Below the pieces are notes generated by a model. It was not told the DNA's origin and searched no databases. It saw nothing but the letters and a program-made list of their open reading frames with translations. A DNA stretch of 64,000 nucleotides from the NCBI GenBank assembly GCA_035627015.1, contig DASPMO010000054.1, positions 32,136-96,135 of the forward strand, read 5' to 3'. This document shows, piece by piece, positions 5,703 to 21,905 of this stretch. The DNA comes from Thermoanaerobaculia bacterium (lineage in GTDB: Bacteria > Acidobacteriota > Thermoanaerobaculia > Gp7-AA8). The position numbers and the translations under genes were made by a program. Numbering within the stretch: position 1 is the stretch's first letter; each line of letters begins with the position of its first letter.

Positions 5703-6930
5703 GATGCAGCACGATCGAGGGACGCGCCTTGCGCACCATCGCCGCGGCCTCGTCGAACGAGGCGGCGCGGCGCGTCGTCAGCAGCCATTCCACGACCGCG
5801 CGGGCGCTGCGCGAGTAGCCGAGGGCGCAGCAGACGAGGAGTGGCTTCGGCGCCGACTCGATGGCCTGTGCCGCGGTGCGCAGGGCGTCCGCATTCGGGA
5901 CGGTGAGATCGAGCACGGGGACGTTGCGATAGGCAGGGTGTTCCGCGCACGACAGCTCGGCGCAGAGATCGACGATCGCGGCGAACGGCTCGCCCGACGT
6001 CGGGATGCGTCCGATCCACACACCGTCGCGCACTTCCGCCGCGCCGGGATGGTTGCGCGTCCAGAGGCGCGAGTTCAGCCACGCCGCGCCGAGGTACGGC
6101 GCGAGCAGCGCGCGGGCGCCGAGGCTCAACCGGCCGCTGGACGATTTCTGGAAGCCGCGCTCGCCGACGGCGGCGTAGATCAGCGCCACGATCGCCAGCG
6201 AGGCCGCGGGCCAGCACATCCAGAGCCACGCGCCGCCGAGAGACGCCACCGCGGTGCAGAGCGCGGCGCCGGCCGCGTAGAACAGCGCCAGGCGGCGGCG
6301 TCTCCGGTCGCGCGTGAACGACAGGCGCCGCAGCGGCGACTCTTCCTCATCCGGCAGGATCCAGAGCGCGAGGAAGCCGACCGCGGCACCGGTGGGGAGA
6401 TCGATGAAGTGGTGTTGATACGTCGTCAGGATCGATACACCGATCAGTGCCATCCACCCGTGGAACAGCCAGCGCATGCGTCGCAGATGCGCGGCGAAGC
6501 GGACCCACACCACGATGAGCAGGGCGATGTGCAGCGAGGGCGCCTGGTTGAACGGCTTGTCGAAACTGGTCAGGGCGGTGAAGAGCGCGCCGAACACTCC
6601 GTCGGACTGCGGCCGCTCGAACGAGAAGCGCAGCGGGAAAGCGATGAAGCAGGCGATCGAGACGAGTTGCGCGAACAGCAGCCGCTGCCCATGGCGATCG
6701 ACTTCGCGGCGCGTCGTGCAGACGAAGAACGAGATCGCGTACAGCAGGTCGATCGACCAGTACGGCACGATGGTCCACGGCACGAAGGGAATGTGCCGTT
6801 CCCACGCGAAGGCGACCACGCCGACGTCCGCCCGCGTGCTGGCCAGCCAGTTCGCGAAGCCGTAGCTGGCGAAGAAGAACGGGCCGAGAAAAGCCAGCCA
6901 CGCGGCGGCGCGCTTCCAGGGACGCTTCAC
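5695..6930 (-). CDS. Membrane protein with SMS/IPC-synthase-like (PAP2_C) catalytic motifs fused to a C-terminal dual-specificity (PTPMT1-like) phosphatase domain
   Basis: GTG start in a GTGA overlap with the upstream gene. The polytopic N-terminal domain carries ...APSLH...(about 40 aa)...YQHHFIDLPTG (an SGH ... HYTxD-like H/H/D triad). The C-terminus has VCCALGYSRS, a CX5R(S) PTP/DSP P-loop. Confidence 0.6.
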   Translation of the reverse strand: MKRPWKRAAAWLAFLGPFFFASYGFANWLASTRADVGVVAFAWERHIPFVPWTIVPYWSIDLLYAISFFVCTTRREVDRHGQRLLFAQLVSIACFIAFPLRFSFERPQSDGVFGALFTALTSFDKPFNQAPSLHIALLIVVWVRFAAHLRRMRWLFHGWMALIGVSILTTYQHHFIDLPTGAAVGFLALWILPDEEESPLRRLSFTRDRRRRRLALFYAAGAALCTAVASLGGAWLWMCWPAASLAIVALIYAAVGERGFQKSSSGRLSLGARALLAPYLGAAWLNSRLWTRNHPGAAEVRDGVWIGRIPTSGEPFAAIVDLCAELSCAEHPAYRNVPVLDLTVPNADALRTAAQAIESAPKPLLVCCALGYSRSARAVVEWLLTTRRAASFDEAAAMVRKARPSIVLHHD

Positions 6931-8663
6931 GCCCGCACCGATAGGGAGACGGTGAAGATCCCCCAGTCGTCGATGCGCTGCTCCAGCTTGCGGAAGCCCG
7001 CGCGCTCCACGAGCTGGTCCATCTCCCCCTGCGAGCGGCGCCGCATCACCCACGCCTCGCCGCCGCGGTGGCTGGTCAGCGCGCGCGCGATCAGCTCGAG
7101 CTGCGGGTGCCACGGCTGGCCGGTATAGACGAGGTATCCCCCCGCCGGGACGGCATCGGCGATCCCCGCGAGCGAGCGCGCCACGAGGTCGTTGTCGCCG
7201 AAGAGCTCGTAGAGTCCGGAGACGATGGCCAGCGTCGGACGCGGGGTCACCGCGGCGAGGGAGGCGCGGTCGAAGGCGTCGCCCTGCACGAAGCGCGCGA
7301 CGTCACCCAGTCCCTTCGACTGGATCATGGCCGCGCCCTGGCGCACATTCAGCTCGCTGTAATCGCGCAGGAGGATCGAGTCGGGACGCGTGGCCGCGCC
7401 GTTCAGCGCCTCGAGCACGTAGCGTCCGTGTCCGGCGGCGACGTCCATCACATGTACCGGCTGGCCCGCCTCGCGCAGCTTCTCCATCGCCAGGCGGATC
7501 AGCTCCTCGACGTGCACCTTGCGCCGGCGGATACCGCGCCAGCCGATCGACTGCAGGTAGTTCCTGTCGATCACGCGGCCCAGGAGCGAGGGGCTGTCGG
7601 GCTGGTTGCGGTAGACGTAATCGAGCGTGCTGCCGGAGTCGAAGCCCGTCTCGTGGCCGAGCTTCAGGCCGTTCGACAACGCGCCGCCGAGGCGCATGCC
7701 CGCGCGCGTCGCCGCCCAGTACAGGCCGCGCGGCGAGAACGGCGAGAGCGGCGTGGCCAGTTCGTCCGCCTCCTGCCGCGTCGGGCCGGTCCGGTGCGAC
7801 TGCGTGAGGTCGACGGTGACCGGCGGCTCGGCGAAGCGCTTTTCGATGAATGTACGCGCGAGCTGCACCGCTTTGGCGCGCTCTTTTTCGCCGAGGGTGT
7901 CGTGGTAGAAGCCGGGCAGCACGTGCCGCTCCTTGACCGTGCTGCCGAGGCGGTTGAAGAAGTCGTGCTGCGGCTTGTGGTGCACGACGAAGTCGGAGCC
8001 GGAGATGAGCAACTGCAGCGGCACGGTGATGGCCTGCGCGTCGGCCACCACCCGCTCCGCGGCCGCGTACAGCTCCAGGAGGATGTTGACGGAGATGTCG
8101 CGCGTGATGAGCGGGTCGGCGTCGAACGACTCGATGCGCCGCGGGTCGTGGGTGAGGAACTTCGACTTCACGTAGCTCTTCACCACGAAGTTGCCGCGCA
8201 GCTTCTGCATCAGCGCCAGCCCCGGCCGCGCCAGCGGGACGTACAGCTTGACCTTGAACGCGGGCGAGGCCAGGACGGCGCAGCGCACCTTCGGCGCGTA
8301 GTCGTGCAGCCACGTCGCGGCCAGCACGGCGCCGACGCTCTGCGCGATCACGGCCACGTTCTCGATGCCGTGCGTGCCGGCGATCCCGCCGACGAAGTCG
8401 TTTACGTCGCGCACGGAGGTGGCGAAGCTCGGGCTGTGTCCGCGCTCGCCGGGCGAGCGGCCGTGGCCGCGCGCGTCCCACGCGTAGAAGGCATACCCGG
8501 GAAGATCCAGCTCGTCGATGAGATGCGCCATGCGTCCGGAGTGCTCGTGCCCGCGGTGGAACAGCACGATGGCGCCTTTGGCATTCTCGGCCGGCCAGTG
8601 CCGGTAGAACAGCTCCACGCCGTCGAACGTGCGGAAGCTCTTCTCCTCAGACGGACGATTCAC
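6927..8663 (-). CDS. Bifunctional alpha/beta-hydrolase (lysophospholipase/monoglyceride-lipase-like) - class I SAM-dependent methyltransferase
   Basis: N-terminus: HRGHEHSGR...AQSVGA nucleophile elbow and DTLGE. C-terminus: VMDVAAGHGRY SAM-binding motif I. 578 aa. Overlaps both neighbouring genes. Confidence 0.75.
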   Translation of the reverse strand: MNRPSEEKSFRTFDGVELFYRHWPAENAKGAIVLFHRGHEHSGRMAHLIDELDLPGYAFYAWDARGHGRSPGERGHSPSFATSVRDVNDFVGGIAGTHGIENVAVIAQSVGAVLAATWLHDYAPKVRCAVLASPAFKVKLYVPLARPGLALMQKLRGNFVVKSYVKSKFLTHDPRRIESFDADPLITRDISVNILLELYAAAERVVADAQAITVPLQLLISGSDFVVHHKPQHDFFNRLGSTVKERHVLPGFYHDTLGEKERAKAVQLARTFIEKRFAEPPVTVDLTQSHRTGPTRQEADELATPLSPFSPRGLYWAATRAGMRLGGALSNGLKLGHETGFDSGSTLDYVYRNQPDSPSLLGRVIDRNYLQSIGWRGIRRRKVHVEELIRLAMEKLREAGQPVHVMDVAAGHGRYVLEALNGAATRPDSILLRDYSELNVRQGAAMIQSKGLGDVARFVQGDAFDRASLAAVTPRPTLAIVSGLYELFGDNDLVARSLAGIADAVPAGGYLVYTGQPWHPQLELIARALTSHRGGEAWVMRRRSQGEMDQLVERAGFRKLEQRIDDWGIFTVSLSVRA

Positions 8664-9260: not shown

Positions 9261-10022
9261 TCAGGCGTTGATGTCGAATCCGTACTTTTCCGGCTCCTTG
9301 GCGATGCGCGCGGCGGCGATCATCAGCGGCACGTAGTCGGCCGTCTCCTGCGGGAGCAGCTCGGCGATGGCGTAGTAGTCATCCTCCGACCCCTTCTCCG
9401 AGCCGGTCACGCTGCGCATGATGCGTCCGACGCGATTCTCGCCGGTGTTGTACGCGGCCGCGGCCAGGTACCAGGAGCCGAAGCGGTCGTACAGGTCGCC
9501 GAGATACGACAGCGCGGCCTCGGTCGACTTTTCCGGATCGGTGCGCTCGTCGACTTTGCGGTCGACGGTCAGGCCGTAGCGCTCCGCGGTCGGCTCGATG
9601 AACTGCCACAACCCCTTCGCCTTCGCGGCCGACGTTGCCACGGGGTTGAAGCCCGACTCGATCATGGCCAGGTAGACGAGGTCCTGCGGCATCCCGCGCG
9701 CGGCGAGCTTCTCGCTGATCATCGGCGCGTACTTCGGCATCCGCTTCAGGAAGACCGTGAAGTCGTCGCGGCCGTCGGTCTGGAAGAACTCGACCCAGCG
9801 ATCGACACGCGGATGGTCGAGGTTGGGGAGATCCCACCCGGTCGTTTGCTCGGGTGGAGCGGCGGCATGCAGGCTACCGACCGCCACCGGCGCGCTCTCG
9901 ACCACGGCCGGCGGGCTGAAACCCGCCGCTCCACCGGGCCGATTCCCGAGTCCGGCGACGAACGACGCGCCGAACAGCGCCGCGAGGGCAAGGGGGATTG
10001 CTGCGTCTTTCGTCTTCATCAT
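9261..10022 (-). CDS. Lytic transglycosylase, SLT domain (MltD/Slt-like), secreted
   Basis: Signal peptide MMKTKDAAIPLALAALFGASFVAG. SLT motifs MIESGFNP...GLWQF...AAYNTGENRV. Confidence 0.8.
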   Translation of the reverse strand: MMKTKDAAIPLALAALFGASFVAGLGNRPGGAAGFSPPAVVESAPVAVGSLHAAAPPEQTTGWDLPNLDHPRVDRWVEFFQTDGRDDFTVFLKRMPKYAPMISEKLAARGMPQDLVYLAMIESGFNPVATSAAKAKGLWQFIEPTAERYGLTVDRKVDERTDPEKSTEAALSYLGDLYDRFGSWYLAAAAYNTGENRVGRIMRSVTGSEKGSEDDYYAIAELLPQETADYVPLMIAAARIAKEPEKYGFDINA

Positions 10023-10105
10023 GCGCCCTTCAACGAGGGCCGCGAGGCGCATACTTCACCTGGGTAACGATATGCACGAACGTGTCATGAACTGCACCGG
10101 AGTGA
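10023..10105 (-). promoter_or_regulatory. Conserved ~85-nt leader/promoter element, copy 2
   Basis: GTGCAGTTCATGACACGTTCGTGCAT...TGAAGTATGCGCC...CCCTCGTTGAAGGGCGCATG aligns nearly base-for-base with 3459-3538. Confidence 0.5.
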
Positions 10106-10502
10106 GCCCCGATCTCTGTCTGCGGCGGTTCATCGGCGACGGTGCCGAGCCGGTCACGACCGCCGACCTGCGCATCCGCCATCTTCTCGCCGCGATTGCC
10201 GCGGGACGCTGGCCGGAGCTTCGTGTTGTGACGAAGGGAGAAGGCGAGGCCATGCGGAGGGCGGACGACGAGTCGCGCCTCGACGCGGGCGAGCGCGAGC
10301 TGCTGGAGCTGCTGGCGGCCGGCGACTTCGAGAGCGCGCTGATGTATTACTGGCAGACGCTCGGGAACTTCTCGTCGCTCGTGCGGGAGCGCGCGATCCA
10401 TCGCGGGGCGCGCCTCTGCAGAGCGCTCAATGACGGTCACGATCCTGACCGGATCTCCGAGCAGTTGCGCGACTCGCCTGGCGCGATGGCCGTCGTCAAC
10501 GA

Positions 10503-10889
10503 TTGGGCCCTTTACGCGTGCGCTACGAGTTGCAGACCGCGTACGAGCTGGGGCGCTGGGACCGCACGGTGCTCGTCCTGCCGCCGCTGCATTCACACCT
10601 CGACGTCATCGACAGCGATTCGCTCCTGCAGATGTTCCCGCGCGTCATCTGGGCCGACACGCTGCACACGGAGTCGCTGACCGACGCGTTCGTGCTGAAG
10701 GACCTCCTCGCGCGCATTGACGCCATCGCGGCGCTGCCGGATGAGGAGCGGCGCCGCCTCATCGACCCCGTTCTGCGCGACGAGGCATTTCCCATCGACC
10801 TGGAGTCGATCGCGCAGGCGTATGAGCTCCAGACGCGCATGGAAGCGATGCAGCAGGACGGCGACGACCGGCTTCGCTACTACGGCTGA
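10503..10889 (+). CDS. Hypothetical protein; possibly the C-terminal half of a larger frameshifted ORF starting near 10252
   Basis: 128-aa ORF with coding-like composition. An upstream ORF in another frame (10252-10520, MRRADDESRLDAGERELLELL...) reads straight into it, suggesting a frameshift or sequencing error near 10500. Confidence 0.3.
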   Translation: MGPLRVRYELQTAYELGRWDRTVLVLPPLHSHLDVIDSDSLLQMFPRVIWADTLHTESLTDAFVLKDLLARIDAIAALPDEERRRLIDPVLRDEAFPIDLESIAQAYELQTRMEAMQQDGDDRLRYYG

Positions 10890-11003
10890 GGATGACATGA
10901 TGGGCGACTCGTTGCGCGCGAGCGCGCTGGATCAGTGGGAGACGGTGCGCAGGCTGCGCGCGATAGTTGAAGCAGAGCCGGAGCGTTTCATCCTCCGGCC
11001 GCG

Positions 11004-12461
11004 TTACGGGCCATTCGTCGTGCGCAAAGCCTGATCCTCGGACGCCGCATGCTGCCCGAGAAAGGCCCGGATGTCCGCGATGGCCTGTTCCAGCTCCCGC
11101 TGTTCGCGTGCGAATGCCGGTACGTCGCCGCCGCAGTGCGGGCAGGTGGTCGTCCCCGCGTAGACGTACTGCTTGCAGCCGTAGCAGACCTCGAGGGTCG
11201 GGGGGACGCGGCCGGGGCGGTCGAGTTGCGGCTCCTTCATCTCCCACACCGGCGGCTCGGCGATGGTGCGGGGGCCGTCGCCGCCGTCCAGCGGCTCGGT
11301 GATGAGCGCGAAGCGGCCCTGGTCGAACGGCGTGCCCGGCGCTTCCTCCGTCTTCACGATGCGCTCGCGGAGGCCCTGCTTGGCCAGTGTGTCCACGCGG
11401 TAGTGGCAGTAGGGATTGTTGCCGGGGCGGCCGAAGAGCACCGTCGACGTCCAGGTGCAGCCGCCGCGGCAGACCTCCGCGTAGTAACAGTCGCGGCAGC
11501 GGCCCCACAGCTCGTGCACCTGCCGGTCGCGCGAGAAGCGGATCTCGCGGCTGTACGTCCAGATGTCCTCGATGGTCATGTCGCGCACGTTGCCGCCGGT
11601 GAACTGCGCCGTCGGCAGCGAGGGGCAGCCCTTGATCGCGCCGTCGGCCTCGATGCCGAGGACGGCCTGCCCCGCGGCGCAGCCGCTGAAGTGCTTCTCC
11701 CCATTGCCGAGCCGCCACTTGTGCTCGTAGGGGCCGAAGTAGCCGATGTTGTTGCCGGCCTGCATCCCCACGCCGAGCGAGCGTGCCTCGTCGTAGATCT
11801 CGCCGAGGAGCGGCATCAGCTCGCCCAGCTCGTACGGCTGGAGGAGCAGGTGGTCGTTGTCGACGGCGTTGCCCATGGCCACGGTGAGCTGGATCTGCCA
11901 GCCGCGGGCGCCGCGCGCCGCGATCTCGTGCAGGATGCCGCGGAGCTGGGGCATGGTGCGGCTGCCGATCTGCGTGTTACAGCCGCTGGGGATGCCGTGC
12001 TCGCGCAGCAGCTCCAGCGCCTGCATCGCCGAGCGGAACGAGCCCTTCACGCCGCGGATCTCGTCGTGCAGCTCTTCCAGCCCGTCCACCGAGACGCCGC
12101 ACGTACCGAGGCCCGCCGCCTTCGCCGCGCGAACGCGCTCGGCGGTCAGCGCGCGGCCGCCCGTCTGCATCGAGGCCAGCATGCCGTGGCTGGTGATGCG
12201 GGCGATGATGTCGGTCCAGTCGCGGCGCAGATAGGCCTCGCCGCCGATGAGTGTGATCTCGCGTGTGCCGAGGCGCGCCAGCTGGTCGACGACCTCGAAG
12301 CACTCCGTGGTGGACAGCTCGTCCGGGCGCACCTTTCCCGCGCGCGAGCCGCAGTGGGCGCATTTCAGGTTGCAGGCGAGGGTGATCTCCCACACCACGT
12401 GCACCGGATGCGGGTGCAGGAGATCGTCCGCGCTGAGAGCACGGGGCGGGGGGGCGGACAC
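11004..12461 (-). CDS. Radical SAM enzyme with a SPASM domain and a C-terminal zinc-ribbon extension (peptide-maturase-like)
   Basis: CNLKCAHC (CX3CX2C) within a WEITLACNLKCAHCGS motif. SPASM Cys cluster GCAAG...GCPSL...CRDCYYAEVCRGGC...NPYC. C-terminal CYGCKQ...CPHCGG. Confidence 0.85.
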   Translation of the reverse strand: MSAPPPRALSADDLLHPHPVHVVWEITLACNLKCAHCGSRAGKVRPDELSTTECFEVVDQLARLGTREITLIGGEAYLRRDWTDIIARITSHGMLASMQTGGRALTAERVRAAKAAGLGTCGVSVDGLEELHDEIRGVKGSFRSAMQALELLREHGIPSGCNTQIGSRTMPQLRGILHEIAARGARGWQIQLTVAMGNAVDNDHLLLQPYELGELMPLLGEIYDEARSLGVGMQAGNNIGYFGPYEHKWRLGNGEKHFSGCAAGQAVLGIEADGAIKGCPSLPTAQFTGGNVRDMTIEDIWTYSREIRFSRDRQVHELWGRCRDCYYAEVCRGGCTWTSTVLFGRPGNNPYCHYRVDTLAKQGLRERIVKTEEAPGTPFDQGRFALITEPLDGGDGPRTIAEPPVWEMKEPQLDRPGRVPPTLEVCYGCKQYVYAGTTTCPHCGGDVPAFAREQRELEQAIADIRAFLGQHAASEDQALRTTNGP

Positions 12462-12473
12462 CGTGTCCGCCCG

Positions 12474-12755
12474 TTACGCCGAGCCGAGGTGCTGCTTGAG
12501 CCGCGAGATCGCGCCCTGCAGGTCACTGTTCGCCACGGATTCGGCCTGCTGCAGGAGCTGCTGCAGCTCCTCACGGCTCGCGCCGCCCGAGATGGCCTTG
12601 TCGACGATGACGCCGTACAACGGCTGGATGTGCTGGTCGCGTGCTGCCTCGAGCGCCTGCCGCATCTGATCCGGATCGTTGCTCTGAAGCGCCTCGTTGA
12701 TCCAGACGCCGTAAAGGGGACGGGGCCTTGGTCCACCACCATAAGAAGACGACAT
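12474..12755 (-). CDS. 93-aa small protein with tandem PLYGV(W/I)(I/V)(N/D)(E/K)A repeats; candidate substrate/precursor of the adjacent rSAM-SPASM enzyme
   Basis: Strong SD (GAGGAGAA, 5 nt, ATG). 12 nt upstream of the rSAM start on the same strand. Two roughly 30-aa repeats: RPLYGVWINEALQSNDPDQMRQALEAAR / QPLYGVIVDKAISGGASREELQQLLQQAE. Confidence 0.55.
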   Translation of the reverse strand: MSSSYGGGPRPRPLYGVWINEALQSNDPDQMRQALEAARDQHIQPLYGVIVDKAISGGASREELQQLLQQAESVANSDLQGAISRLKQHLGSA

Positions 12756-12832
12756 AGAGTTCTCCTCAGCGAAGTTTTCCGGGGGAGCTATGAAAGATAG
12801 GTTCCCGAATTCGTGCCGTCAAGATGGCCCGC

Positions 12833-15800
12833 TCAGAACCGCACCCCCACCGACACGCGCCAGGTCCGCGGCGTCTGATAGTCCCCCTCGCTGTCCGGCT
12901 TCCCGAAGTTCGGTCCCTTGATGTAATGCACTCCCTCGACCGGCTTCTCGGTGAAGGGATTGAACGGCTGCAGCCCCTTGGCCGGGCACGGCGCGGCCAG
13001 GACGCCGCTGCCAGTCTGCGGCGCGCAGTCGACGGCGGAGAGGATCTCTTCGTCGACGGCCTCGATGCCCTGCTCGTTGAAGAGGTTCAGCACTTCCGGC
13101 TGCACGAAGAGCTGCACGCCGCCGAGGCGCAGGTTGTAGTTGATGGCCAGGTCGGTGCGGGTGATGTTCTCGTGCTTCAGTGCACCGCGTCCGTCGACGA
13201 AGTAGTCGACCGTGGCCGGCGGCGTGAGGTAGCCGGGGTTGGTGACGTACGGCCGCGGGTCGATGGACATGTCCAGCGACGAGCGCGTGCCGGAGTCGAA
13301 GTTCTGGAGCACCGAGATGTTGAAGTCGCCGGCCGGGGTCGGCTGGTCGTACGAGACCCACAGCCGCGCGCGGTGCCGCTGATCGCCGGTGAGGTAGCCG
13401 GTCGGATAGTTCCAGCTCTCCTGGCGGTACTCCGGATACTCGGCGGCGACGCCGACCAGCGGACCGGTGCCGCTGTCTTCACCGGTGACGTTGCCGGTCA
13501 GGCGCGACCAGGTGTACGTGCCGCCGAGGCGGAGGCGCTGCAGCAGGCGGTAGTCGAACTGCGTCTGCACCCCGGTGTACTTGCGGTCGTAGACGTCGCT
13601 GTTGCTGCGGATGATGGAGAGGTCGTACTGCGTCGACGTGCGCGGGTCGGTCACCTTGCCGGTGCTGACGTCGCGGAACGAGGTGTAGAAGTTCTCCCAG
13701 TCGCGCAGGACCACGTCCGCGCGCACGTAGCCACGCGTGCCGAGGGTGCCCGAGACGCCGACCGTGTACTCGCGCACCATCGGCGATTCCAGCCCGCCGA
13801 CGTCGAGGATGCTTTCCACGCCCGGCACCGACGGCGTGGTGCGGAAGGGACGCATGTTCGTCCCGCCGTTGGCGAAGAACCAGTCCATGACCATCTTGAT
13901 GGCCTGGTCGGTGGGGATGAGCTGGCTGGTGGGGACGTTCACGTCGTTGTTGATGTTCGGCCCGCGGTAGTTCCACTGCAGGCTGGCGTTGCGGCCGGCG
14001 GGGTCGGCGTCGTTCGCCGCGCCCTCGGAGAGGCGTCCCACGTAGTGGCCGTACGTGGCGTTGAAGACGAGGCGGCCGTTGGCGAAGAGGTCGTAGTGCG
14101 CGGCCAGGCGCGGGCTGAACGCCGAGTCGTCGGCGATCTGCGCCGTGCCGTCGCCGCTGATGGCGTCGTTCTTGTCGTAGCGCGCACCGACGTTGAAGGA
14201 CCAGCGGTCGTTCAGCGTCCAGCGGTCGTTGAGGTAGAGCGAGCGCGTGGTGTAGTCGGAGCCCTGGCTGAGCACGAAGATCGGCAGCCAGGAGATGCGC
14301 GTGAGCGTGCCGTTCGCGCCGCCGGGCATGCGCGGGAAGATCTGGTCGCCGCGGACGATGGTGTTCGGGACGCTGATGCGGTAGTCGCTGCCGTTCTGGT
14401 AGTTGTTCACGGCGCGCACTTCGTTGAAGTCCTCGTAGCCGCCCCGGATGTCGTGGCTGCCGAAGTTCCGCGTCGGCAGGAAGTACGTGGCCTTGGCGGT
14501 GTAGACGCGGATGTCGCGCTCCTCTCCCTCGGCTGTGGCGCGGAACGTCGGCGACCAGTAGCGCGTCTCGCGCGCGCGGTCGGTGATCAGGGTTCCCTTG
14601 ATGATGTCGAAGTACGGCGAGCCGGAGCCGACGAACTTGAAGTCCTTCCGCGAGTACTGCCCCTCGACGAAGAAGTTGCTCGAGAGCGCGCCGTTGTAGT
14701 TCGCCACCAGGAACGTGTGCGGCGTCTGGCGCTCCGCCACCAGGCTGTCCAGGTCCATGATCACCTGGCCGGTCTGGTTCGTCTCGCTCTCGTCGTTGTC
14801 GAGATACGACGCCACGAGGGAGTGGGCATTGGTGATCGACGCGGTGAGCTTTCCTTCCAGGCGCCGCTGCTCGGTGCCGTGCGGATAGGTGATCGGCGTG
14901 AGCGGCGTGCCGACGGGGATCGGGTTGCCGTTCGCATCCTGGTCGCCGGTGCGGGCCAGGCCGGGCACGGTCTGGCGGATGTCCTCGGTCTCGGCATAGC
15001 GGCCGGCGGTGAAGAACCAGAGGCGGTCGCGGAGGATCGGTCCGCCGAGGGTGCCTTCGTAGACCAGGTTCGTCGTGTCGTCCTGCTCCACCGTGAGCGG
15101 CGTGCGGTCCGCCCACGACTCGTTGGTCAGCGAGGTGCGGAAGCTGCCGGAGAGGTCGTTGCCGCCCGACTTCGTGATCGTGCTGACCACGCCGCCGGTG
15201 AAATGGCCATACTCGGCGGTGATGCCGCCGGTCATGACCGTCGTCTCCTGGATGGCGTCCTCGATGAAGAGCTGGTGCGGCTGGCCGCGCAGGTTCTCGT
15301 TCACGATGGCGCCGTTGACGAGGTAGACGCTGTCGAACGACATCGCGCCGGAGATGATGATGTTGCCGCCGGGACCGTTGCTGTTCGCACCGGGTGCGAG
15401 GAGGGTGACGGCGTTGATCGTGCGGCCGACCGGGAGCTGCTCGATCAGCTCCTGGTTGAAGTTCGTGCTGACCTGCGTCGACTCGACGGCCGCGGTGACG
15501 GGCGTGGCGGCGGTGACGGTGATGGCTTCGCTGACGGCGGCCGCGCGCAACTCGACGTCGAGGCGCTCGGTCCGCGCCGCGGTAAGCGCCAGCCGCCGCG
15601 TGACGGTCTGCATGCCCGAGAGCTCGTAGGTGATGGTGTAGTCACCCGGCGGCAGCAGCGGCACGAGATAGTCGCCCGTCTCCGTGGTCACGGCGGTGCG
15701 CGTCCCCTGCAGCTGGGGCGAGGTGAGCGAGATGGTCACGCCGGGGATGGCCGTGCCGTCCGCCGTCACTTTGCCGGAGAGCGTGGCCGTGGGGATGGAC

Positions 15801-15865
15801 TGCGCGAAGAGGAGAGCGGTAAACGAGAAGAGCAGAACCGCGACTGAAAGACGAAGGCGCATCAT
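12833..15865 (-). CDS. TonB-dependent receptor with an N-terminal carboxypeptidase-regulatory-like domain (1010 aa)
   Basis: Start MMRLRLSVAVLLFSFTALLFAQS after GGAGGA. CarbopepD_reg-like LSGKVTADGTAIPGVTISL...GDYTITYEL, then plug and 22-strand-barrel-like sequence with the terminal motif VSVGVRF. Upstream ORF-track extension rejected. Confidence 0.85.
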   Translation of the reverse strand: MMRLRLSVAVLLFSFTALLFAQSIPTATLSGKVTADGTAIPGVTISLTSPQLQGTRTAVTTETGDYLVPLLPPGDYTITYELSGMQTVTRRLALTAARTERLDVELRAAAVSEAITVTAATPVTAAVESTQVSTNFNQELIEQLPVGRTINAVTLLAPGANSNGPGGNIIISGAMSFDSVYLVNGAIVNENLRGQPHQLFIEDAIQETTVMTGGITAEYGHFTGGVVSTITKSGGNDLSGSFRTSLTNESWADRTPLTVEQDDTTNLVYEGTLGGPILRDRLWFFTAGRYAETEDIRQTVPGLARTGDQDANGNPIPVGTPLTPITYPHGTEQRRLEGKLTASITNAHSLVASYLDNDESETNQTGQVIMDLDSLVAERQTPHTFLVANYNGALSSNFFVEGQYSRKDFKFVGSGSPYFDIIKGTLITDRARETRYWSPTFRATAEGEERDIRVYTAKATYFLPTRNFGSHDIRGGYEDFNEVRAVNNYQNGSDYRISVPNTIVRGDQIFPRMPGGANGTLTRISWLPIFVLSQGSDYTTRSLYLNDRWTLNDRWSFNVGARYDKNDAISGDGTAQIADDSAFSPRLAAHYDLFANGRLVFNATYGHYVGRLSEGAANDADPAGRNASLQWNYRGPNINNDVNVPTSQLIPTDQAIKMVMDWFFANGGTNMRPFRTTPSVPGVESILDVGGLESPMVREYTVGVSGTLGTRGYVRADVVLRDWENFYTSFRDVSTGKVTDPRTSTQYDLSIIRSNSDVYDRKYTGVQTQFDYRLLQRLRLGGTYTWSRLTGNVTGEDSGTGPLVGVAAEYPEYRQESWNYPTGYLTGDQRHRARLWVSYDQPTPAGDFNISVLQNFDSGTRSSLDMSIDPRPYVTNPGYLTPPATVDYFVDGRGALKHENITRTDLAINYNLRLGGVQLFVQPEVLNLFNEQGIEAVDEEILSAVDCAPQTGSGVLAAPCPAKGLQPFNPFTEKPVEGVHYIKGPNFGKPDSEGDYQTPRTWRVSVGVRF

Positions 15866-15986
15866 TCCTCCGAACCGCGTTCGATTTTTCGGGAGCCGGA
15901 GCTTATCGCCGCTATGGATGTATGTCCACGAGTGGTACGCTGAGCAGACTCGTCCCGGACCATTCAGACCCAAACGGAGGATTGCG

Positions 15987-18251
15987 ATGTCCCGTTCGTT
16001 TGCCCGGCGTGCGTCCCTGCTCGTGCTCGTCTTCTTCCTCGCCGCTTCTTTGCTGGCGCAGGACCCGCCCGCCGATCCCCCTCCGCCCCCGCAGGAGCCG
16101 GTGCTCGACGAGATCACCGTCACCGCGCAGAAGCGCGAGGAGAACGTGCAGGACGTCCCCTCCGCCGTCACCGCGGTGCCCGATACGACGATGGAGGTCG
16201 TGACCGCCGGCGGGCAGGACGTGAAGGCGCTGTCGGGCCGCGTGCCGAGCCTGGTCATCGAGTCGTCGTTCGGCCGCGCGTTCCCCCGCTTCTACATCCG
16301 CGGCCTCGGCAACACGGACTTCGACCTGAACGCCTCGCAGCCGGTGTCGATGGTCTACGACGAGGTCGTGCTGGAGAACCCGGTGGTGAAGGGGATGCCG
16401 GTCTGGGACATCGAGCGCGTGGAAGTGCTGCGCGGACCGCAGGGGACGCTCTTCGGCCGCAACACCCCCGCGGGGGCGATCAAGTTCGAGTCGAAGAAGC
16501 CCACGCGCGACTTCGAGGCCAACGCGCAACTGTCGTATGCGACGTTCGGCACGCTCGACCTGAAAGGCGCCGTCGGCGGCGGGCTCACGCCGACGCTCTC
16601 GGCCCGCGTGTCGTTCCTCTATCAGCAGCAGGAAGACTGGATCGACAACCAGCGCACCGGCGGCGAGCTCGGTGGCTACGAGAACAACGCCTGGCGCGCG
16701 CAGTTGCTCTGGGAGCCGACGGCCAGGGTGGACGCGCTGCTCAACGTGCACGGCTGGAATGTCGACGGCACGGCGCGCATCTTCCGCGCGAACATGCTGC
16801 AGCAGGGGAGCAACGAGATCGTCCCCGGGTTCGAGCAGGACGTGGTCTTCCAGGACGGGCAGAACGTGCAGGAGATCTCGTCGACCGGCGGCAGCCTGCG
16901 CGTCGACTTCGACGTCACCGGCGGCACGATCACGAGCGTGACCGGCTACGAGAGCCTGGACATGTTCAGCCGCGGCGACATCGACGGCGGCTTCGGCGCG
17001 GTGTTCGCGCCTCCCTTCGGGCCGGGGTTCATCCCGTTCTTCTCCGAGTCGGCCGACGGGATCCCGTCGCTGACGCAGATCACGCAGGAGCTGCGCTACG
17101 CCTCGAACACGCAGGCGCCGCTGCAGTGGCTCGCGGGGCTGTTCTATTTCGACGAGGATCTGGAGGCGGAGACGTACAGCTTCACCTCGATCGCGCCGGG
17201 CAACCCGCAGGAAGGATTTGCCACGCAGGAGCAGCACGCGAGGTCGTGGGCCGCGTTCGGGTCGGTGGACCTGGCCACGTCAGACCGGTGGAAGTTCAAG
17301 GGCGGCCTGCGCTTCACGCACGACGAGAAGGACTTCGCGGCGGAGCGCCTCCAGGAGCTCTTCTTCAATACGCCGACGACCGGTCCCGTGACGGCGAGCA
17401 CGGACGACGACTTCGTGAACTGGGACCTCAGCGCGACGTTCATCATGAGCCCCCGTACGAACGTATACGGCCGCGTGGCCACCGGCTCGCGCGCGCCGAG
17501 CATCCAGGGGCGCATTCTCTTCGCCCCCGACACGAGCGGCGGGACGAACCCGGCCACGAACGGCCTGTCGGTGGCCGACACGGAGGAGCTCTTCTCGACC
17601 GAGGTGGGTGTGAAGACGGAGCTGCTCGCGCGCACGCTGCGGCTGAATGCCGCGGTGTACCGCTATGAAGTCGACGGGCAGCAGATGACGGCCGTCGGCG
17701 GGCAGTTCAACGTGGCCACGCTGCTGAATGCGGACCGCACGGAAGGCTACGGCGTGGAGGCGGACATCCAGTGGATGCCGGCGCCGGCGTGGCTGGCCAC
17801 ACTGGGCGTCAGCTACAACCACACGGAGATCGACGATCCGAACCTGACCGTGGCCCCGTGTGGCGGCGGCTGCACGGTGCTCGATCCGGTGGCCGGAGGA
17901 CTGGCGCTCGTCAACGGCAACAGCCTGCCGCATGCGCCGGAGTGGATCGTCAACGGCATCATCGACTACCGGACGCTGATGGGCACGGGGCAGGCCACGA
18001 TGTCGGTGGACTGGGCGTACCACGGCAACAAGCAGTTCTTCCTTTACGAGTCGCGCGAGTTCCAGGGGGACAGCTTCGAGCTCGGCCTCCGCGCCGGCTA
18101 CACCTTCGGAAACGGCCGGTACGGCCTGGCCCTCTTCGGCCGCAACCTGACGGACGAGGTGATCGTGCAGAACGGCATCGACTTCAATAACCTGACCGGC
18201 ATGACCAACGAGCCGAGGATGCTGGGGGTGGAGGCGTCGCTGCGGTTCTGA
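15987..18251 (+). CDS. TonB-dependent outer-membrane receptor (754 aa)
   Basis: RBS ACGGAGGATT. Signal peptide. Plug region ITVTAQKREENVQDVP...GRAFPRFYIRGLG. C-terminal beta-barrel ending ...EASLRF. Confidence 0.9.
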   Translation: MSRSFARRASLLVLVFFLAASLLAQDPPADPPPPPQEPVLDEITVTAQKREENVQDVPSAVTAVPDTTMEVVTAGGQDVKALSGRVPSLVIESSFGRAFPRFYIRGLGNTDFDLNASQPVSMVYDEVVLENPVVKGMPVWDIERVEVLRGPQGTLFGRNTPAGAIKFESKKPTRDFEANAQLSYATFGTLDLKGAVGGGLTPTLSARVSFLYQQQEDWIDNQRTGGELGGYENNAWRAQLLWEPTARVDALLNVHGWNVDGTARIFRANMLQQGSNEIVPGFEQDVVFQDGQNVQEISSTGGSLRVDFDVTGGTITSVTGYESLDMFSRGDIDGGFGAVFAPPFGPGFIPFFSESADGIPSLTQITQELRYASNTQAPLQWLAGLFYFDEDLEAETYSFTSIAPGNPQEGFATQEQHARSWAAFGSVDLATSDRWKFKGGLRFTHDEKDFAAERLQELFFNTPTTGPVTASTDDDFVNWDLSATFIMSPRTNVYGRVATGSRAPSIQGRILFAPDTSGGTNPATNGLSVADTEELFSTEVGVKTELLARTLRLNAAVYRYEVDGQQMTAVGGQFNVATLLNADRTEGYGVEADIQWMPAPAWLATLGVSYNHTEIDDPNLTVAPCGGGCTVLDPVAGGLALVNGNSLPHAPEWIVNGIIDYRTLMGTGQATMSVDWAYHGNKQFFLYESREFQGDSFELGLRAGYTFGNGRYGLALFGRNLTDEVIVQNGIDFNNLTGMTNEPRMLGVEASLRF

Positions 18252-18264
18252 CGACGCTTCCGTG

Positions 18265-18471
18265 TCACTTCACCTGGTCGGGCCTGTTGTCCGCCAGGCG
18301 GTCGCCGAGGGCGTCGTTGCGGGGGCTTTCGCCCTCGTCGTTCTGCCCCGAATGCTCGCCGCGGGCGGTGCCCTCGTAGCCAAGGACCTCGTCGCCGACG
18401 ATGGCGTCGATCTTCTGCATCTGTTCTTCTTTGGCGCCCTGCTCTTCGACTTCTCGTGGTTGGTCGCTCAT
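18265..18471 (-). CDS. Small acidic protein (68 aa), translationally coupled (ATGA) to the ABC-2/M1 fusion gene
   Basis: MSDQPREVEEQGAKEEQMQKIDAIVGDEVLGYEGTARGEHSGQNDEGESPRNDALGDRLADNRPDQVK. Its start ATG overlaps the TGA of the upstream gene. Confidence 0.4.
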   Translation of the reverse strand: MSDQPREVEEQGAKEEQMQKIDAIVGDEVLGYEGTARGEHSGQNDEGESPRNDALGDRLADNRPDQVK

Positions 18472-21400
18472 GGGAGGGGCAGGAGCAAGGATTGCTCCAG
18501 ATCGCGCTGGATCAGCTTGCGCCGCGGGTCGATGCCGGCGCTCTTCGGCGCGCGCGGGACGGTGACGGCGATGGTCTGCTCGCCGGAACGAATGCGGTGC
18601 GGCTGCAGGTAGAGCGGCGCGCCCGACGCATCGAAGACGCCGATGTCGACGCGATCGTCCATCGGTACGGGGCGGTCGCGGCCCGTCGCGTCGGCGACGA
18701 TTTTCTCCGCGCTCACGGTGAGTGTGACGCGATACGTGCCGTTGGGCAGGCGCTCGGATCGGGCGCTCTTCGCGCGCAGGCTCCAGAGCGTGATCGTCTC
18801 GAAGAGGTCGCGAAGGAGGCCGCGCTGCGCCTCGGGGGTGACGGCGCGCAGCTCGGCGTAGAGGTCGCGCGCGGTTGGGAAGGGGGGGCCGCCGAAGCGA
18901 TGCTTCACGAAGAGGCGTCGCAACGCCGTATTGACGCGCTCCTCGCCGATGGCCTCGCGCAGCGTGTACATCACCAGCGCACCCTTGTTGTAATGGATGT
19001 AGTCGTGGTCGTTCGAGCGCAGCAGCGGCACTTCGCTCGCGCGATGACCGCGGCGCCCGAGGAGGTAGCGGTGCTGGAAGAGCTCCCGGGCGCGGTCCAC
19101 CGGCTCGCGGCCGTACGTCTGCTCCAGCACCATCAGCGCGGTGTAATGCGCCAGCGTCTCCGTGAGCACCTGCGCCCCTTCCACGCGCGCGGGCCGCAAC
19201 TGGTTTCCCCACCACTGATGCGAGACCTCGTGCGCCGTGACGAGGAACGGATAGTCGATGCCGTTCTCCGGTCTGGCCATGAGCCCGAACCCCTCGGACA
19301 GCGCCAGCGCGGTGGGATACGCGCGCGCGTACGTCCCCCGGTGCCGCGGGAACTCGACGATGCGCAGCTCGCGATGCGGGTACGGACCGAAGTGTCGGGC
19401 GTGGTAGTCAAGCGTGGCCTTCGTGGCCCGGAGGATGCCGTCGAGGTTGCGCGTGTGCCGGGGGTGATGGAGCACCTGGATGGCAACGCCGTTCCAGCGG
19501 TCCTCGGTCACGGCGTACGCCGCCGAGTGGATGGCGTAGATGTTCTGGATCGGCGCGTCGGTGACGTAGTGGAACCAGCGTTTCCCGTTCGCGGTCCAGG
19601 TCCGGCGCAGGGTCCCGGGTGCGACCGCGGTCTGATCGAGCGCCGTGCCGATCGTCGTGTCGAGCTGCAGCCAGCGCGTATCGCCGATGGCGGACGTCTG
19701 TTGCAGCGCTTCCTGGTCGTCGAGCGATGCCAGGCGGCCGCGGGGAGGGAGCCCGCGCTCCTTCCGCGCCAGGTCGTCGGCCAGCTCGAGCTCGCGCTGA
19801 TAGCCGATCATCGGCATCCACGTGCGGCCGAAGTACGTCCCGTTGCCGACGATCTCGCCGCCCGCGCGTGCGTTGGTGAAGCCGCGCGGCTCGTGCACGA
19901 CGTGGAAGCGCAACTGCATCGCCTTCCCCGGCTGCAGCGGTCGCGGAAGCGGGAAGACCTCGTAGCGCGGCCGTGCCTCTTTATTGAGGATCACGTGCAC
20001 GGAGTCGATCGGCTTTCCGGTCTGATTCTCGAGCCGGTAGGTGCCGCGGACGTGCACGGCGCGGCGATCGAGCTCGACGTGCAGCCTGGCGTGGGTGATG
20101 AGCGGCTGCGGGAGTTTCTCGTAGCGCTTGTACCGCCGCTCGTATGCGGCGCGCGCGTCCTGCCGCTCGTCGCTCGTGCGGTAGTCGTTGAGGATGTTCG
20201 TGTTGTAGAAGACCCAGCCGCCGGTGGCGACGACGCCGAGCGCCGCGGTCGCGAGGGCCGCGACCGCGCGCCGCGGGAGTCGCATGCTGCGATCCTGTCC
20301 GCGCGGCCAGAAGAACGTCGCCGCGATCATGAGCAGCAGCGCCCAGGCGGTCCAGTACAGCCGGAACGACAGCCACGGCACGAAGAAGGGCTCGAAACCG
20401 CTGATGTCGGAGTACGACCAGCCGGGATCGGCACCCCACGCGAGGAGGTTGTGCTCGATGCCGAGCGCCGAGCGGCCGAAGCGGATGAGCGCCCAGCACA
20501 GCACGGCCACGAAGTGCCCGGCGTATTTGTGGTTCACCACCACGTGCACGAAGAGCGCGAGCGCGGCCCACACCACGTACTGCGGGAGCTGGATGCCGAA
20601 GAGGATCTTCGCGTAGAGCGCGGGCTCGAGCTCGAAGTAGCCCTCCGCCGCCTGCAGGCCGATGCCGGCGGCCATCAGCGCCGCCTGCACGATCGCCAGC
20701 GCGGCGATCATCGCGCCCAGTTTCCCCGTCAGCAGGACCCAGTTCGGGAGCGGCGCGGTGTCGACGATGGCGCTGCTGCGGGTGTCGCGCTCCCTCCACA
20801 CCAGCTCCCCGGCGAAGAGGATGCTCAGCAGGACGAGCACGGCGCCGGCGTCGCCCAGGACCTCGCGCGCGACGAGAGAGGTCATCGGCCATGTGGGGGT
20901 GTCGAGGATCACGCCGGCCGACTGCCACCCGGCCTTGACGATCATCGCCAGCAGCAGCGTCAGCGCGGCGAGTGTGGCCCGCGTCAGGAAGATCTCGGAG
21001 AGCGATCGCGTCGCGACGGCGGCCATCTGCCGCAGGCGCGTCGCGGCATTGAACGTCGGCCGCACCTCGGGCGCGATCCGGGGAGCGGCGGCGCGTTCCG
21101 GCGGGGGGATGGCGCGGCGTGTGCGGCGGCGCTGCCCGCCGTCGTGGAAACGGAAGCGGACGTGCGTCAGCGCGAGCACCACGCCGCCGAGGGCCATCCA
21201 GGTAAGGCGGTTCCAGAGCAGCGCGTCGGCGAACGGCACGAAGCGGGTGTTGGTCTCGAACGGCGTCCAGTACTGCGTGAGCTTGTCGAGCGTCGCCAGT
21301 CCGAATGGATCGAAGGAGTCGCCCGAGAGCCATGAGCCGAAGAAGAGGAACGCGCCGGCGGCGTAGCTGGCCAGCGTCCGGCCCGTGAGGGCGGCCAGCG

Positions 21401-21905
21401 CGAACATGATCGCGCCGATGGCGAAGATGGTCGGGAGGGCGAAGACGAAATACGGCTGGATGTACGCGAGCGGCCGCATCGCGCCGAAGAGCTCCGGCTG
21501 GCTGGCGCGCTGCATCTCGACCAGCACGATCCCGCCCGCCGCCACCGCGAGCAGGAGCGCGTTGATCGTAAACGCGCCGAGAAAGCGCCCGCCGAGGTAA
21601 CCGCTCTTCGAGATCGGCATCGTGTAGAGGAGCGGATGCATGCGCGTCTCGACGTCGCGCGCCGCGGCATCGCCGAAGAGTCCCGCCGCGGCGACGAGCA
21701 TCAGCATCGTGGCGATGACCGTGACCATCGCGATCGTCGCCGGCGCATTGGCGTGAATCGTCCCGGTTCCCGCCGCCTCGCCGATCATCAGGTCGATCAG
21801 CAGCAGCCACGTCGCCGCCGCCATGGCCGCGAAATAGAGCCACGTCGTCCACTGGCGAAACCGGTACGCGATCTCGAAGCGGAAGACCTCGGCGAACGTG
21901 CTCAC
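18468..21905 (-). CDS. Fusion protein: N-terminal ABC-2-type polytopic permease-like membrane domain + C-terminal M1-family zinc aminopeptidase domain (1145 aa)
   Basis: At least 12 predicted TM helices in the first ~600 aa. C-terminal HEVSHQWWGN (HExxH) plus a downstream E/Y (LREAIGEERVNTAL), typical of M1 aminopeptidases. Confidence 0.8.
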   Translation of the reverse strand: MSTFAEVFRFEIAYRFRQWTTWLYFAAMAAATWLLLIDLMIGEAAGTGTIHANAPATIAMVTVIATMLMLVAAAGLFGDAAARDVETRMHPLLYTMPISKSGYLGGRFLGAFTINALLLAVAAGGIVLVEMQRASQPELFGAMRPLAYIQPYFVFALPTIFAIGAIMFALAALTGRTLASYAAGAFLFFGSWLSGDSFDPFGLATLDKLTQYWTPFETNTRFVPFADALLWNRLTWMALGGVVLALTHVRFRFHDGGQRRRTRRAIPPPERAAAPRIAPEVRPTFNAATRLRQMAAVATRSLSEIFLTRATLAALTLLLAMIVKAGWQSAGVILDTPTWPMTSLVAREVLGDAGAVLVLLSILFAGELVWRERDTRSSAIVDTAPLPNWVLLTGKLGAMIAALAIVQAALMAAGIGLQAAEGYFELEPALYAKILFGIQLPQYVVWAALALFVHVVVNHKYAGHFVAVLCWALIRFGRSALGIEHNLLAWGADPGWSYSDISGFEPFFVPWLSFRLYWTAWALLLMIAATFFWPRGQDRSMRLPRRAVAALATAALGVVATGGWVFYNTNILNDYRTSDERQDARAAYERRYKRYEKLPQPLITHARLHVELDRRAVHVRGTYRLENQTGKPIDSVHVILNKEARPRYEVFPLPRPLQPGKAMQLRFHVVHEPRGFTNARAGGEIVGNGTYFGRTWMPMIGYQRELELADDLARKERGLPPRGRLASLDDQEALQQTSAIGDTRWLQLDTTIGTALDQTAVAPGTLRRTWTANGKRWFHYVTDAPIQNIYAIHSAAYAVTEDRWNGVAIQVLHHPRHTRNLDGILRATKATLDYHARHFGPYPHRELRIVEFPRHRGTYARAYPTALALSEGFGLMARPENGIDYPFLVTAHEVSHQWWGNQLRPARVEGAQVLTETLAHYTALMVLEQTYGREPVDRARELFQHRYLLGRRGHRASEVPLLRSNDHDYIHYNKGALVMYTLREAIGEERVNTALRRLFVKHRFGGPPFPTARDLYAELRAVTPEAQRGLLRDLFETITLWSLRAKSARSERLPNGTYRVTLTVSAEKIVADATGRDRPVPMDDRVDIGVFDASGAPLYLQPHRIRSGEQTIAVTVPRAPKSAGIDPRRKLIQRDLEQSLLLPLP

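Follow-up and report, generated by a model that had tools for sequence, protein, structure and literature searches.

A TIGR03913 radical-SAM/SPASM enzyme and its DUF1843 partner protein form a predicted tyramine splicease cassette in a Thermoanaerobaculia genome

A stretch of 64,000 nucleotides from a Thermoanaerobaculia metagenome-assembled genome (MAG), contig DASPMO010000054.1 and referred to below as the window, encodes a radical S-adenosylmethionine (SAM)/SPASM enzyme of 485 amino acids (positions 11004-12461, GTG start) and, directly upstream of it, a protein of 93 amino acids (12474-12755); both genes, like all other features of the window given here unless stated otherwise, lie on the reverse strand. 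We found that the two genes are a typical instance of a previously catalogued two-gene system, with a maturase of the NCBIfam family TIGR03913 that accompanies a protein with the Pfam domain DUF1843, the 'Y-X(10)-GDL' domain. Judging from sequence relationships, the pair is likely to be a self-contained, leaderless two-component splicease cassette, in which the DUF1843 protein would serve as the substrate of the adjacent TIGR03913 enzyme, a predicted tyramine splicease. An earlier reading of the same DNA, hereafter the original prediction, had proposed an undescribed cluster with cyclophane chemistry and coupling to a TonB-dependent receptor, none of which is supported by the results presented here.

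The maturase and its linked DUF1843 protein

The enzyme is matched by the Pfam Radical_SAM and SPASM models, the latter at residues 261-326, and it scores 626.2 bits against TIGR03913, for which the curated equivalog cut-off is 591.75, with residues 5-456 of the enzyme corresponding to positions 4-461 of the 477-position model. An identical protein is already held by NCBI under the TIGR03913 name 'GDL motif peptide-associated', and the JGI label for close homologs is 'Y-X(10)_GDL-associated radical SAM protein'. Since the enzyme lies above the family cut-off and is thus named in both resources, and since its partner belongs to Pfam DUF1843, the system cannot be called undescribed. At E <= 1e-20 more than 7,500 homologs of the enzyme were found. 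Three cysteine arrangements are all present in it, namely the CX3CX2C cluster motif CNLKCAHC (C30, C34 and C37; 12351-12374), a SPASM region with seven cysteines (C261, C279, C322, C325, C331, C335 and C352; 11406-11681) and a C-terminal, zinc-ribbon-like CxxC...CxxC element (C426, C429, C440 and C443; 11133-11186). In an alignment of 78 enzyme sequences, comprising 77 homologs and the window enzyme, the cluster motif is kept in 76, each of the SPASM cysteines in 77-78 and the C-terminal element in 62. This last element, which had been taken for an unusual extension, is therefore a feature of the family; it is covered by the TIGR03913 model, and it is invariant in alignment A1. An AlphaFold2 (AF2) model of the enzyme (pLDDT 85.6, pTM 0.85) shows short strands at residues 422-426 and 431-434, which form a beta-hairpin, and a long helix at residues 447-482 following the CxxC...CxxC element. 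The radical-SAM core begins at about residue 20, and the enzyme has no N-terminal RRE domain.

Gene linkage was examined in 79 genomic loci with enzyme homologs, drawn from Acidobacteriota, Ralstonia, Chromobacterium, Trinickia, cyanobacteria, Sorangium, Bradyrhizobium-like MAGs and others, and the linkage counts refer to the 78 loci with an enzyme open reading frame (ORF), that is, 77 fetched loci and the window. A hidden Markov model (HMM) iterated from the window peptide recovered DUF1843 ORFs in 75 of the 79 fetched loci, and a DUF1843 ORF adjoins the enzyme gene in 74 of the 78, in one to three copies per locus. Without exception, the 121 enzyme-adjacent DUF1843 ORFs are on the strand of the enzyme, with a median gap of 55 nt, and 66 of them are located upstream; of the four loci without DUF1843, one is a truncated contig, and the homologs in the other three score under both family cut-offs. 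Upon all-against-all clustering of the neighbouring ORFs, DUF1842/DUF1843 proved to be the only conserved partner family, the rest being shadow ORFs, and no transporter, protease, exporter or receptor family recurred near the cassette. Many of the clustered DUF1843 partners carry a fused N-terminal DUF1842 domain, an arrangement that is also visible at the annotated Burkholderia pseudomallei locus. No gene from the first 30 kb of the window other than those of the cassette recurs consistently near the homologs; scattered matches to a few window ORFs, 30-38% identical, were seen in two or three loci.

In the window, 12 nt separate the stop codon of the peptide gene from the GTG start of the enzyme gene on the same strand, and a Shine-Dalgarno sequence, GAGGAGAA (12760-12767), is positioned 4 nt ahead of the ATG of the peptide. 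The closest relatives of the window are Thermoanaerobaculia (Acidobacteriota) MAGs. The small ORF is kept upstream of the enzyme in ten of ten close relatives and is under purifying selection, with ratios of nonsynonymous to synonymous substitution rates (dN/dS) of 0.31-0.55 against seven close relatives; in NCBI the ORF is already annotated as a gene, under the accession HYC89540.1 and the label 'hypothetical protein'. The ORF map and the sequence confirmed every gene, motif, gap and receptor that the original prediction had listed, including the Shine-Dalgarno sequence. Its suggestion of a radical-SAM/SPASM peptide or protein maturase paired with a substrate was borne out as well, and the conservation of the small ORF beside enzyme homologs, which it had proposed as a check, is seen both in the ten close relatives and across the larger set of loci.

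The 93-residue protein is matched by Pfam DUF1843 with 36.9 bits (gathering threshold, 23.3), and an HMM of the domain, trained on relatives that have a single copy, resolves two domains in it, of which residues 1-42 are a truncated copy, consisting of the motif and the first helical part, and residues 41-90 a complete DUF1843 domain. The protein had been described as two tandem repeats of about 30 residues with a helical tail; the repeat is real, as the internal alignment score of 44 was reached by 0 of 2000 shuffles (mean 18.3 +/- 3.7), but the layout is that of one and a half DUF1843 domains. In a single-sequence AF2 model, which has a low to moderate pLDDT of 65, the peptide is all helical (residues 15-24, 28-40, 45-56 and 61-91), and the Tyr of each site is placed at the N-terminal end of a helix. 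A leader-family or NCBIfam match was not found for the peptide, and only 12-13 residues precede its first site.

The consensus of 149 DUF1843 domains reads ..I-[R/I]-P-L-Y-G-V-A-I-x-x-A-I-x-S-G-D-L-x-x-M-K.., and its Tyr, found in every one of the 144 domains covering the position, is the sole invariant residue. It is followed by Gly in 115 domains (80%) and by Ala in 26, and the residue before it is Leu in 103 domains, Pro in 31 and Met in 6. The Tyr-Ala loci are L025, L046 and L074 (Calothrix), L053, L071, L072, L034, and three from Chromobacterium (L033, L036 and L044), the last three of which have an extra N-terminal 'PPYGTALQQA'. The GDL positions are not invariant across the 149 domains (G in 109, D in 103, L in 75), and in the clade of the window GDL is replaced by NDP and GAS; in the window peptide the literal motif is absent, repeat 1 reading Y-X10-NDP and repeat 2 Y-X10-GAS with the spacing retained. 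Two splice sites are predicted in the peptide. The first, L14-Y15-G16 (CTT TAC GGC, 12708-12716), is assigned from motif invariance and from its likeness to a published PlpXY tag, and the second, L46-Y47-G48 (TTG TAC GGC, 12612-12620), from motif invariance and the alignment of relatives, since of the seven close relatives in that alignment only L060 departs from LYG there, with LYA. S4-Y5-G6 (12738-12746), for which the evidence is weak, is a third X-Y-G sequence and possibly an extra modification site. An N-terminal [G/S]-Y-G also occurs in L003, L006, L007 and L060 and is absent from L001 and L008.

Repeated DUF1843 paralogs are found within operons, from which a self-assembly hypothesis has originated, and the cassette has no leader, protease or exporter, so one might regard the DUF1843 protein as a structural partner or scaffold, such as a self-assembling shell-like protein, with the real substrate being encoded elsewhere. 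We consider this very unlikely. The DUF1842-DUF1843 protein of B. pseudomallei was biochemically a monomer for which no assemblies were found, the one to three copies per locus are as seen in multi-substrate maturases, and the most conserved element of the domain is a short, unstructured pre-helix motif with an invariant Tyr, which is typical of a modification site.

Kinship with tyramine spliceases

The second-best NCBIfam model for the window enzyme was TIGR04103 ('nif11-class peptide radical SAM maturase 3') with 466.9 bits, while the third-best family reached 155 bits and all other SPASM families remained at or below that value (AhbD, NirJ and MftC at most 155, PqqE 99, SkfB 80, anSME 63 and DynA 62). 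Because TIGR04103 is the second-best model at 467 bits and all others score far lower, we regard it as the sister family of TIGR03913. A grouping with anSME or NirJ, which the original prediction had named as a sign of an enzyme that does not act on peptides, was not observed, the scores being about 63-130 bits as against 626 and 467.

As a stand-in for PlpX in a direct comparison of enzymes, we used the TIGR04103 cassette of a Nostoc plasmid (Nostoc sp. C057 plasmid p057_G, 4627-6448; locus L080), which consists of a Nif11 precursor with the core RGSIALYGLPPELF, a TIGR04103 enzyme and an ORF of 71 amino acids. The precursor ends in ...AGGRGSIALYGLPPELF, its core contains LYG, and the location of the enzyme between the precursor and the 71-amino-acid ORF is the published type I A-X-Y layout. 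NHLP and further Nif11 precursors, and a TOMM cyclodehydratase gene, neighbour this cassette. The Nostoc enzyme gave mirror-image scores, 853 bits against TIGR04103 and 415 against TIGR03913, and the two families are therefore reciprocal second-best families at 415-467 bits. The window and Nostoc enzymes are 52% identical over 377 amino acids (E 1e-139), and the stretches GNNIGY(F/Y)GPYE and GNNPYCH(Y/H)R are near-identical in both families. The Nostoc enzyme, at 420 amino acids, aligns only up to residue 391 of the window enzyme and has no counterpart of its C-terminal extension, and BLASTP detected no similarity between this C-terminal tail and the Nostoc Y-like protein. A PlpY-like ORF was not noticed beside the window enzyme, but no sequence search for one was made.

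One homolog outside both families, in a Solibacteraceae MAG (L075:5689-7296, forward strand), scores 468 bits against TIGR04103 and 432 bits against TIGR03913; its CxxC...CxxC zinc ribbon is N-terminal, not C-terminal, and it is flanked by two more radical-SAM genes. No obvious YG-rich peptide was seen near this or the other out-of-family homologs (L077 and L078).

PlpX is a SPASM radical-SAM enzyme (InterPro IPR026482), with which tyramine is excised at X-Y-G. The natural sites of PlpXY are MYG and LYG, and the published tag sequences include GPIRPLYGLPI, which the window sites PRPRPLYGVWI and HIQPLYGVIV as well as the family consensus IRPLYGVAI closely resemble. A later survey gives PlpX-like YG-associated enzymes in 189 genera with 27 validated pairs, and the splicease systems found outside cyanobacteria are reported to need no Y protein. 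The Protein Data Bank (PDB) contains no splicease structure and no DUF1843 structure; the best structural matches of the enzyme were SkfB, PqqE, SuiB and anSME, with query-normalised TM-scores of about 0.5-0.55 and with SkfB and PqqE being the nearest.

Several points weigh against the splicease assignment. The TIGR04103 score of 467 bits is below the cut-off of 725, because of which the window enzyme is to be seen as a sister, not a member, of the PlpX equivalog. The assignment also presupposes that IPR026482, the PlpX tyramine-splicease family, is the same as TIGR04103. Ala follows Tyr in 26 of 143 DUF1843 domains (18%), ten loci have only Tyr-Ala in their aligned DUF1843 domains, and the published motif is X-Y-G; the Tyr-Ala domains would be left without an explanation if Gly is strictly required for splicing. 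The window substrate is leaderless and becomes helical right after the site, unlike the characterised Nif11 and NHLP precursors. Finally, an experiment on a TIGR03913/DUF1843 pair was not found in the literature searched, to which Scott et al. 2022 (Chem) did not belong.

The Tyr-Ala domains and the negative outcome of the literature search, together with the curation of TIGR03913 as an equivalog separate from TIGR04103 and the extra zinc-ribbon and helix module at the C-terminus of the enzyme, would be accommodated if the TIGR03913 enzyme modified the invariant Tyr by a different radical reaction, for example side-chain crosslinking, beta-carbon functionalisation or epimerisation, its splicease kinship then reflecting shared substrate recognition and not a common chemistry. 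We think this unlikely, given that the 52% identity extends across the whole catalytic and SPASM region and includes stretches near-identical in both families, that the only invariant feature of the substrate is the splice motif itself, and that the residues flanking it match the published PlpXY tag sequence.

Predicted chemistry and the flanking genes

From its kinship with the spliceases we infer the chemistry of the cassette, its mode of recognition and its role as follows. SAM would be cleaved reductively at the CX3CX2C cluster, and the resulting 5'-deoxyadenosyl radical would be used to remove a tyramine equivalent (C8H9NO, -135.07 Da per site) at the invariant Tyr of the Leu-Tyr-Gly sites, that is, at Y15 and Y47, and possibly also at Y5 in the N-terminal S-Y-G. 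The backbone would then be rejoined, by which L14 and L46 would become alpha-keto-beta-leucine (ketoamide) residues. The unmodified 93-amino-acid protein has a monoisotopic mass of 10065.08 Da. Ketoamides are electrophilic warheads of protease inhibitors.

Given that an N-terminal leader is missing from the substrate and that a PlpY-like ORF, for which no sequence search was made, was not noticed beside the enzyme, recognition probably takes place through the motif of about ten residues around Tyr-Gly and the helices that follow it, perhaps with the participation of the C-terminal zinc-ribbon and helix extension of the enzyme. An activating role has been reported for PlpY and for the leader helix of RhaA and, by analogy, the C-terminal module or the substrate helices after the site may take over this role. 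A 'follower-type precursor', which the original prediction had mentioned as an alternative, agrees with a substrate of this kind. The cassette has no conserved neighbour that encodes a protease or an exporter, and for this reason its product is more likely to be a small protein that stays intact after modification than a peptide that is cleaved and secreted.

Strong induction of homologous operons has been reported for Chromobacterium, by quorum sensing, and for Burkholderia thailandensis, in stationary phase. The operon of Chromobacterium subtsugae, with its DUF1842/DUF1843 proteins and 'GDL motif' maturase, was assigned to an 'XYE' radical-SAM system with no evidence offered (PMC12114271); the family scores point to a place of the GDL-motif maturase in the splicease clade rather than in 'XYE'. 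More tentatively, and with rather little confidence, we propose that DUF1843 proteins as a whole could be a large, phylum-spanning class of natural leaderless substrates, in which a ketoamide or another Tyr-directed modification that tolerates Tyr-Ala would be set where a helical domain has its N-terminal cap. Rather than being secreted, the product would then remain in the cell as an electrophilic protein that acts in stationary phase or under stress, and the helices after the site, together with the zinc-ribbon/helix tail of the enzyme, would provide recognition in place of the PlpY activator.

Two TonB-dependent receptors lie on the upstream side of the cassette. The first, of 1010 amino acids with CarboxypepD_reg, Plug and barrel domains (12833-15865), ends 77 nt upstream of the peptide gene on the same strand, and the second, with Plug and barrel domains (15984-18251, forward strand), is divergent from it. 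A promoter-like site, TTGACG-17 nt-TATCTT (12794-12822), falls within the 77 nt that separate the receptor gene from the peptide gene; it is a consensus match only and, in a promoter scan of positions 10500-13200, was the sole consensus-like match, with 1 found and 0.2 expected. A scan of the same interval revealed no terminators. A tblastn search with the receptor in the 79 loci found nothing beside the cassette, the single exception being L035, where a weak match lies downstream of the enzyme gene at a distance of about 1.5 kb, and the absence of the receptor extends to ten relatives that have 79-85% identical enzymes and a conserved peptide gene. Other genes occupy the upstream position in four of the five relatives checked, namely transketolase (twice), a helicase and a B12-binding radical-SAM enzyme, while in the fifth none was recognisable. 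The linkage to TonB-dependent transport that had been suspected is thus not conserved, and on this comparative evidence the two receptors are unrelated neighbours of the cassette.

The same evidence bears on the chemistry that the original prediction had put forward, a three-residue cyclophane of the triceptide type or another aromatic crosslink on YGV/WIN with uptake or recycling through the TonB-dependent receptor. Y-G-V and W-I-N are indeed present in the window peptide, the enzyme is indeed a SPASM radical-SAM protein, and the receptor gene is close by on the same strand. However, this reading is without comparative support because the Trp and Asn of WIN are not conserved, with Trp occupying its position in 15 of 149 DUF1843 domains and, of seven close relatives compared, six having Asp instead of the Asn. 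Moreover, no cyclophane-maturase family is among the best 25 of the 71 NCBIfam matches of the enzyme, and the top two, TIGR03913 and TIGR04103, are more than 300 bits above the remaining NCBIfam matches listed. Taken together with the promoter-like site between the receptor and peptide genes and the lack of the receptor beside the cassette in the related loci, including those with the closest enzymes, this makes a cyclophane extremely unlikely.

Elsewhere in the window, the G+C content of which is about 68% throughout, two overlapping forward-strand ORFs in different frames (9757-10680 and 10503-10889) without a Pfam match are convergent with the enzyme gene at its 3' end, and a frameshift or a sequencing error may have split a single gene into the two. 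Positions 18468-21905 encode a protein of 1145 amino acids with ABC-2-type permease segments and a peptidase M1 domain. At 6927-8663, a Hydrolase_4 alpha/beta hydrolase is fused to Methyltransf_20 and adjoins genes for a CDP-alcohol phosphatidyltransferase and a PAP2/DSP phosphatase; these surroundings look like a lipid-modification cluster unrelated to the cassette. The other neighbours in the window include a lytic transglycosylase and lipid-metabolism genes.

With the enzyme family curated, the exact protein named in GenBank and the peptide family present in Pfam, the locus carries little weight as a discovery. What our analysis adds is that HYC89540.1, annotated as a 'hypothetical protein', can be assigned as the putative substrate of the enzyme, a DUF1843 protein with two predicted splice sites, and that 'GDL-motif' radical-SAM systems are linked to tyramine splicing, a link not made in the literature examined, where one paper suggests 'XYE'. 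A compact, leaderless substrate with two sites and a single-protein enzyme, from Acidobacteriota, could be a test case or a tool for installing ketoamides in proteins.

Comparison with known systems

The window enzyme shares the general fold and the arrangement of its clusters with other SPASM maturases (SkfB, PqqE, SuiB/StrB, MftC, DynA/DarE and WgkB) and with anSME, but the models of these families give 57-127 bits as against 626 and 467 for the two models of the splicease clade.

With the tyramine spliceases (PlpX/PlpY/PlpA, PcpX and RhaX/RasX) the relationship is closer, as the enzyme belongs to a sister family, is 52% identical to the Nostoc member, and is accompanied by a substrate with X-Y-G sites (LYG at 14-16, LYG at 46-48 and SYG at 4-6); like the published binary splicease systems, which lack a Y protein, the cassette has two components. 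It differs from them in that its substrate has neither a Nif11 or NHLP leader nor a GG cleavage site, and in that the site opens a helical domain on its N-terminal side, which would put any recognition element after the site. The additional C-terminal module of about 90 residues in the window enzyme is missing from the Nostoc TIGR04103 enzyme.

The closest known systems are those of TIGR03913, or 'Y-X(10)-GDL-associated' systems, named from Burkholderia (B. pseudomallei BPSS0212 and B. thailandensis BTH_II2182-2184), Chromobacterium and Ralstonia, whereas the host of the window is a Thermoanaerobaculia (Acidobacteriota) MAG. Unlike these, the window has a stand-alone, tandem substrate of 1.5 DUF1843 domains without a DUF1842 domain, where the B. 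pseudomallei protein is a fused two-domain DUF1842-DUF1843 protein; it has a single substrate gene where the Burkholderia systems form a gene 'trio'; and its literal GDL is degenerate (NDP and GAS). In common with them it has an enzyme above the family cut-off with the same cysteine pattern, including the C-terminal CxxC...CxxC, a DUF1843 gene directly upstream on the same strand, and an invariant motif Tyr.

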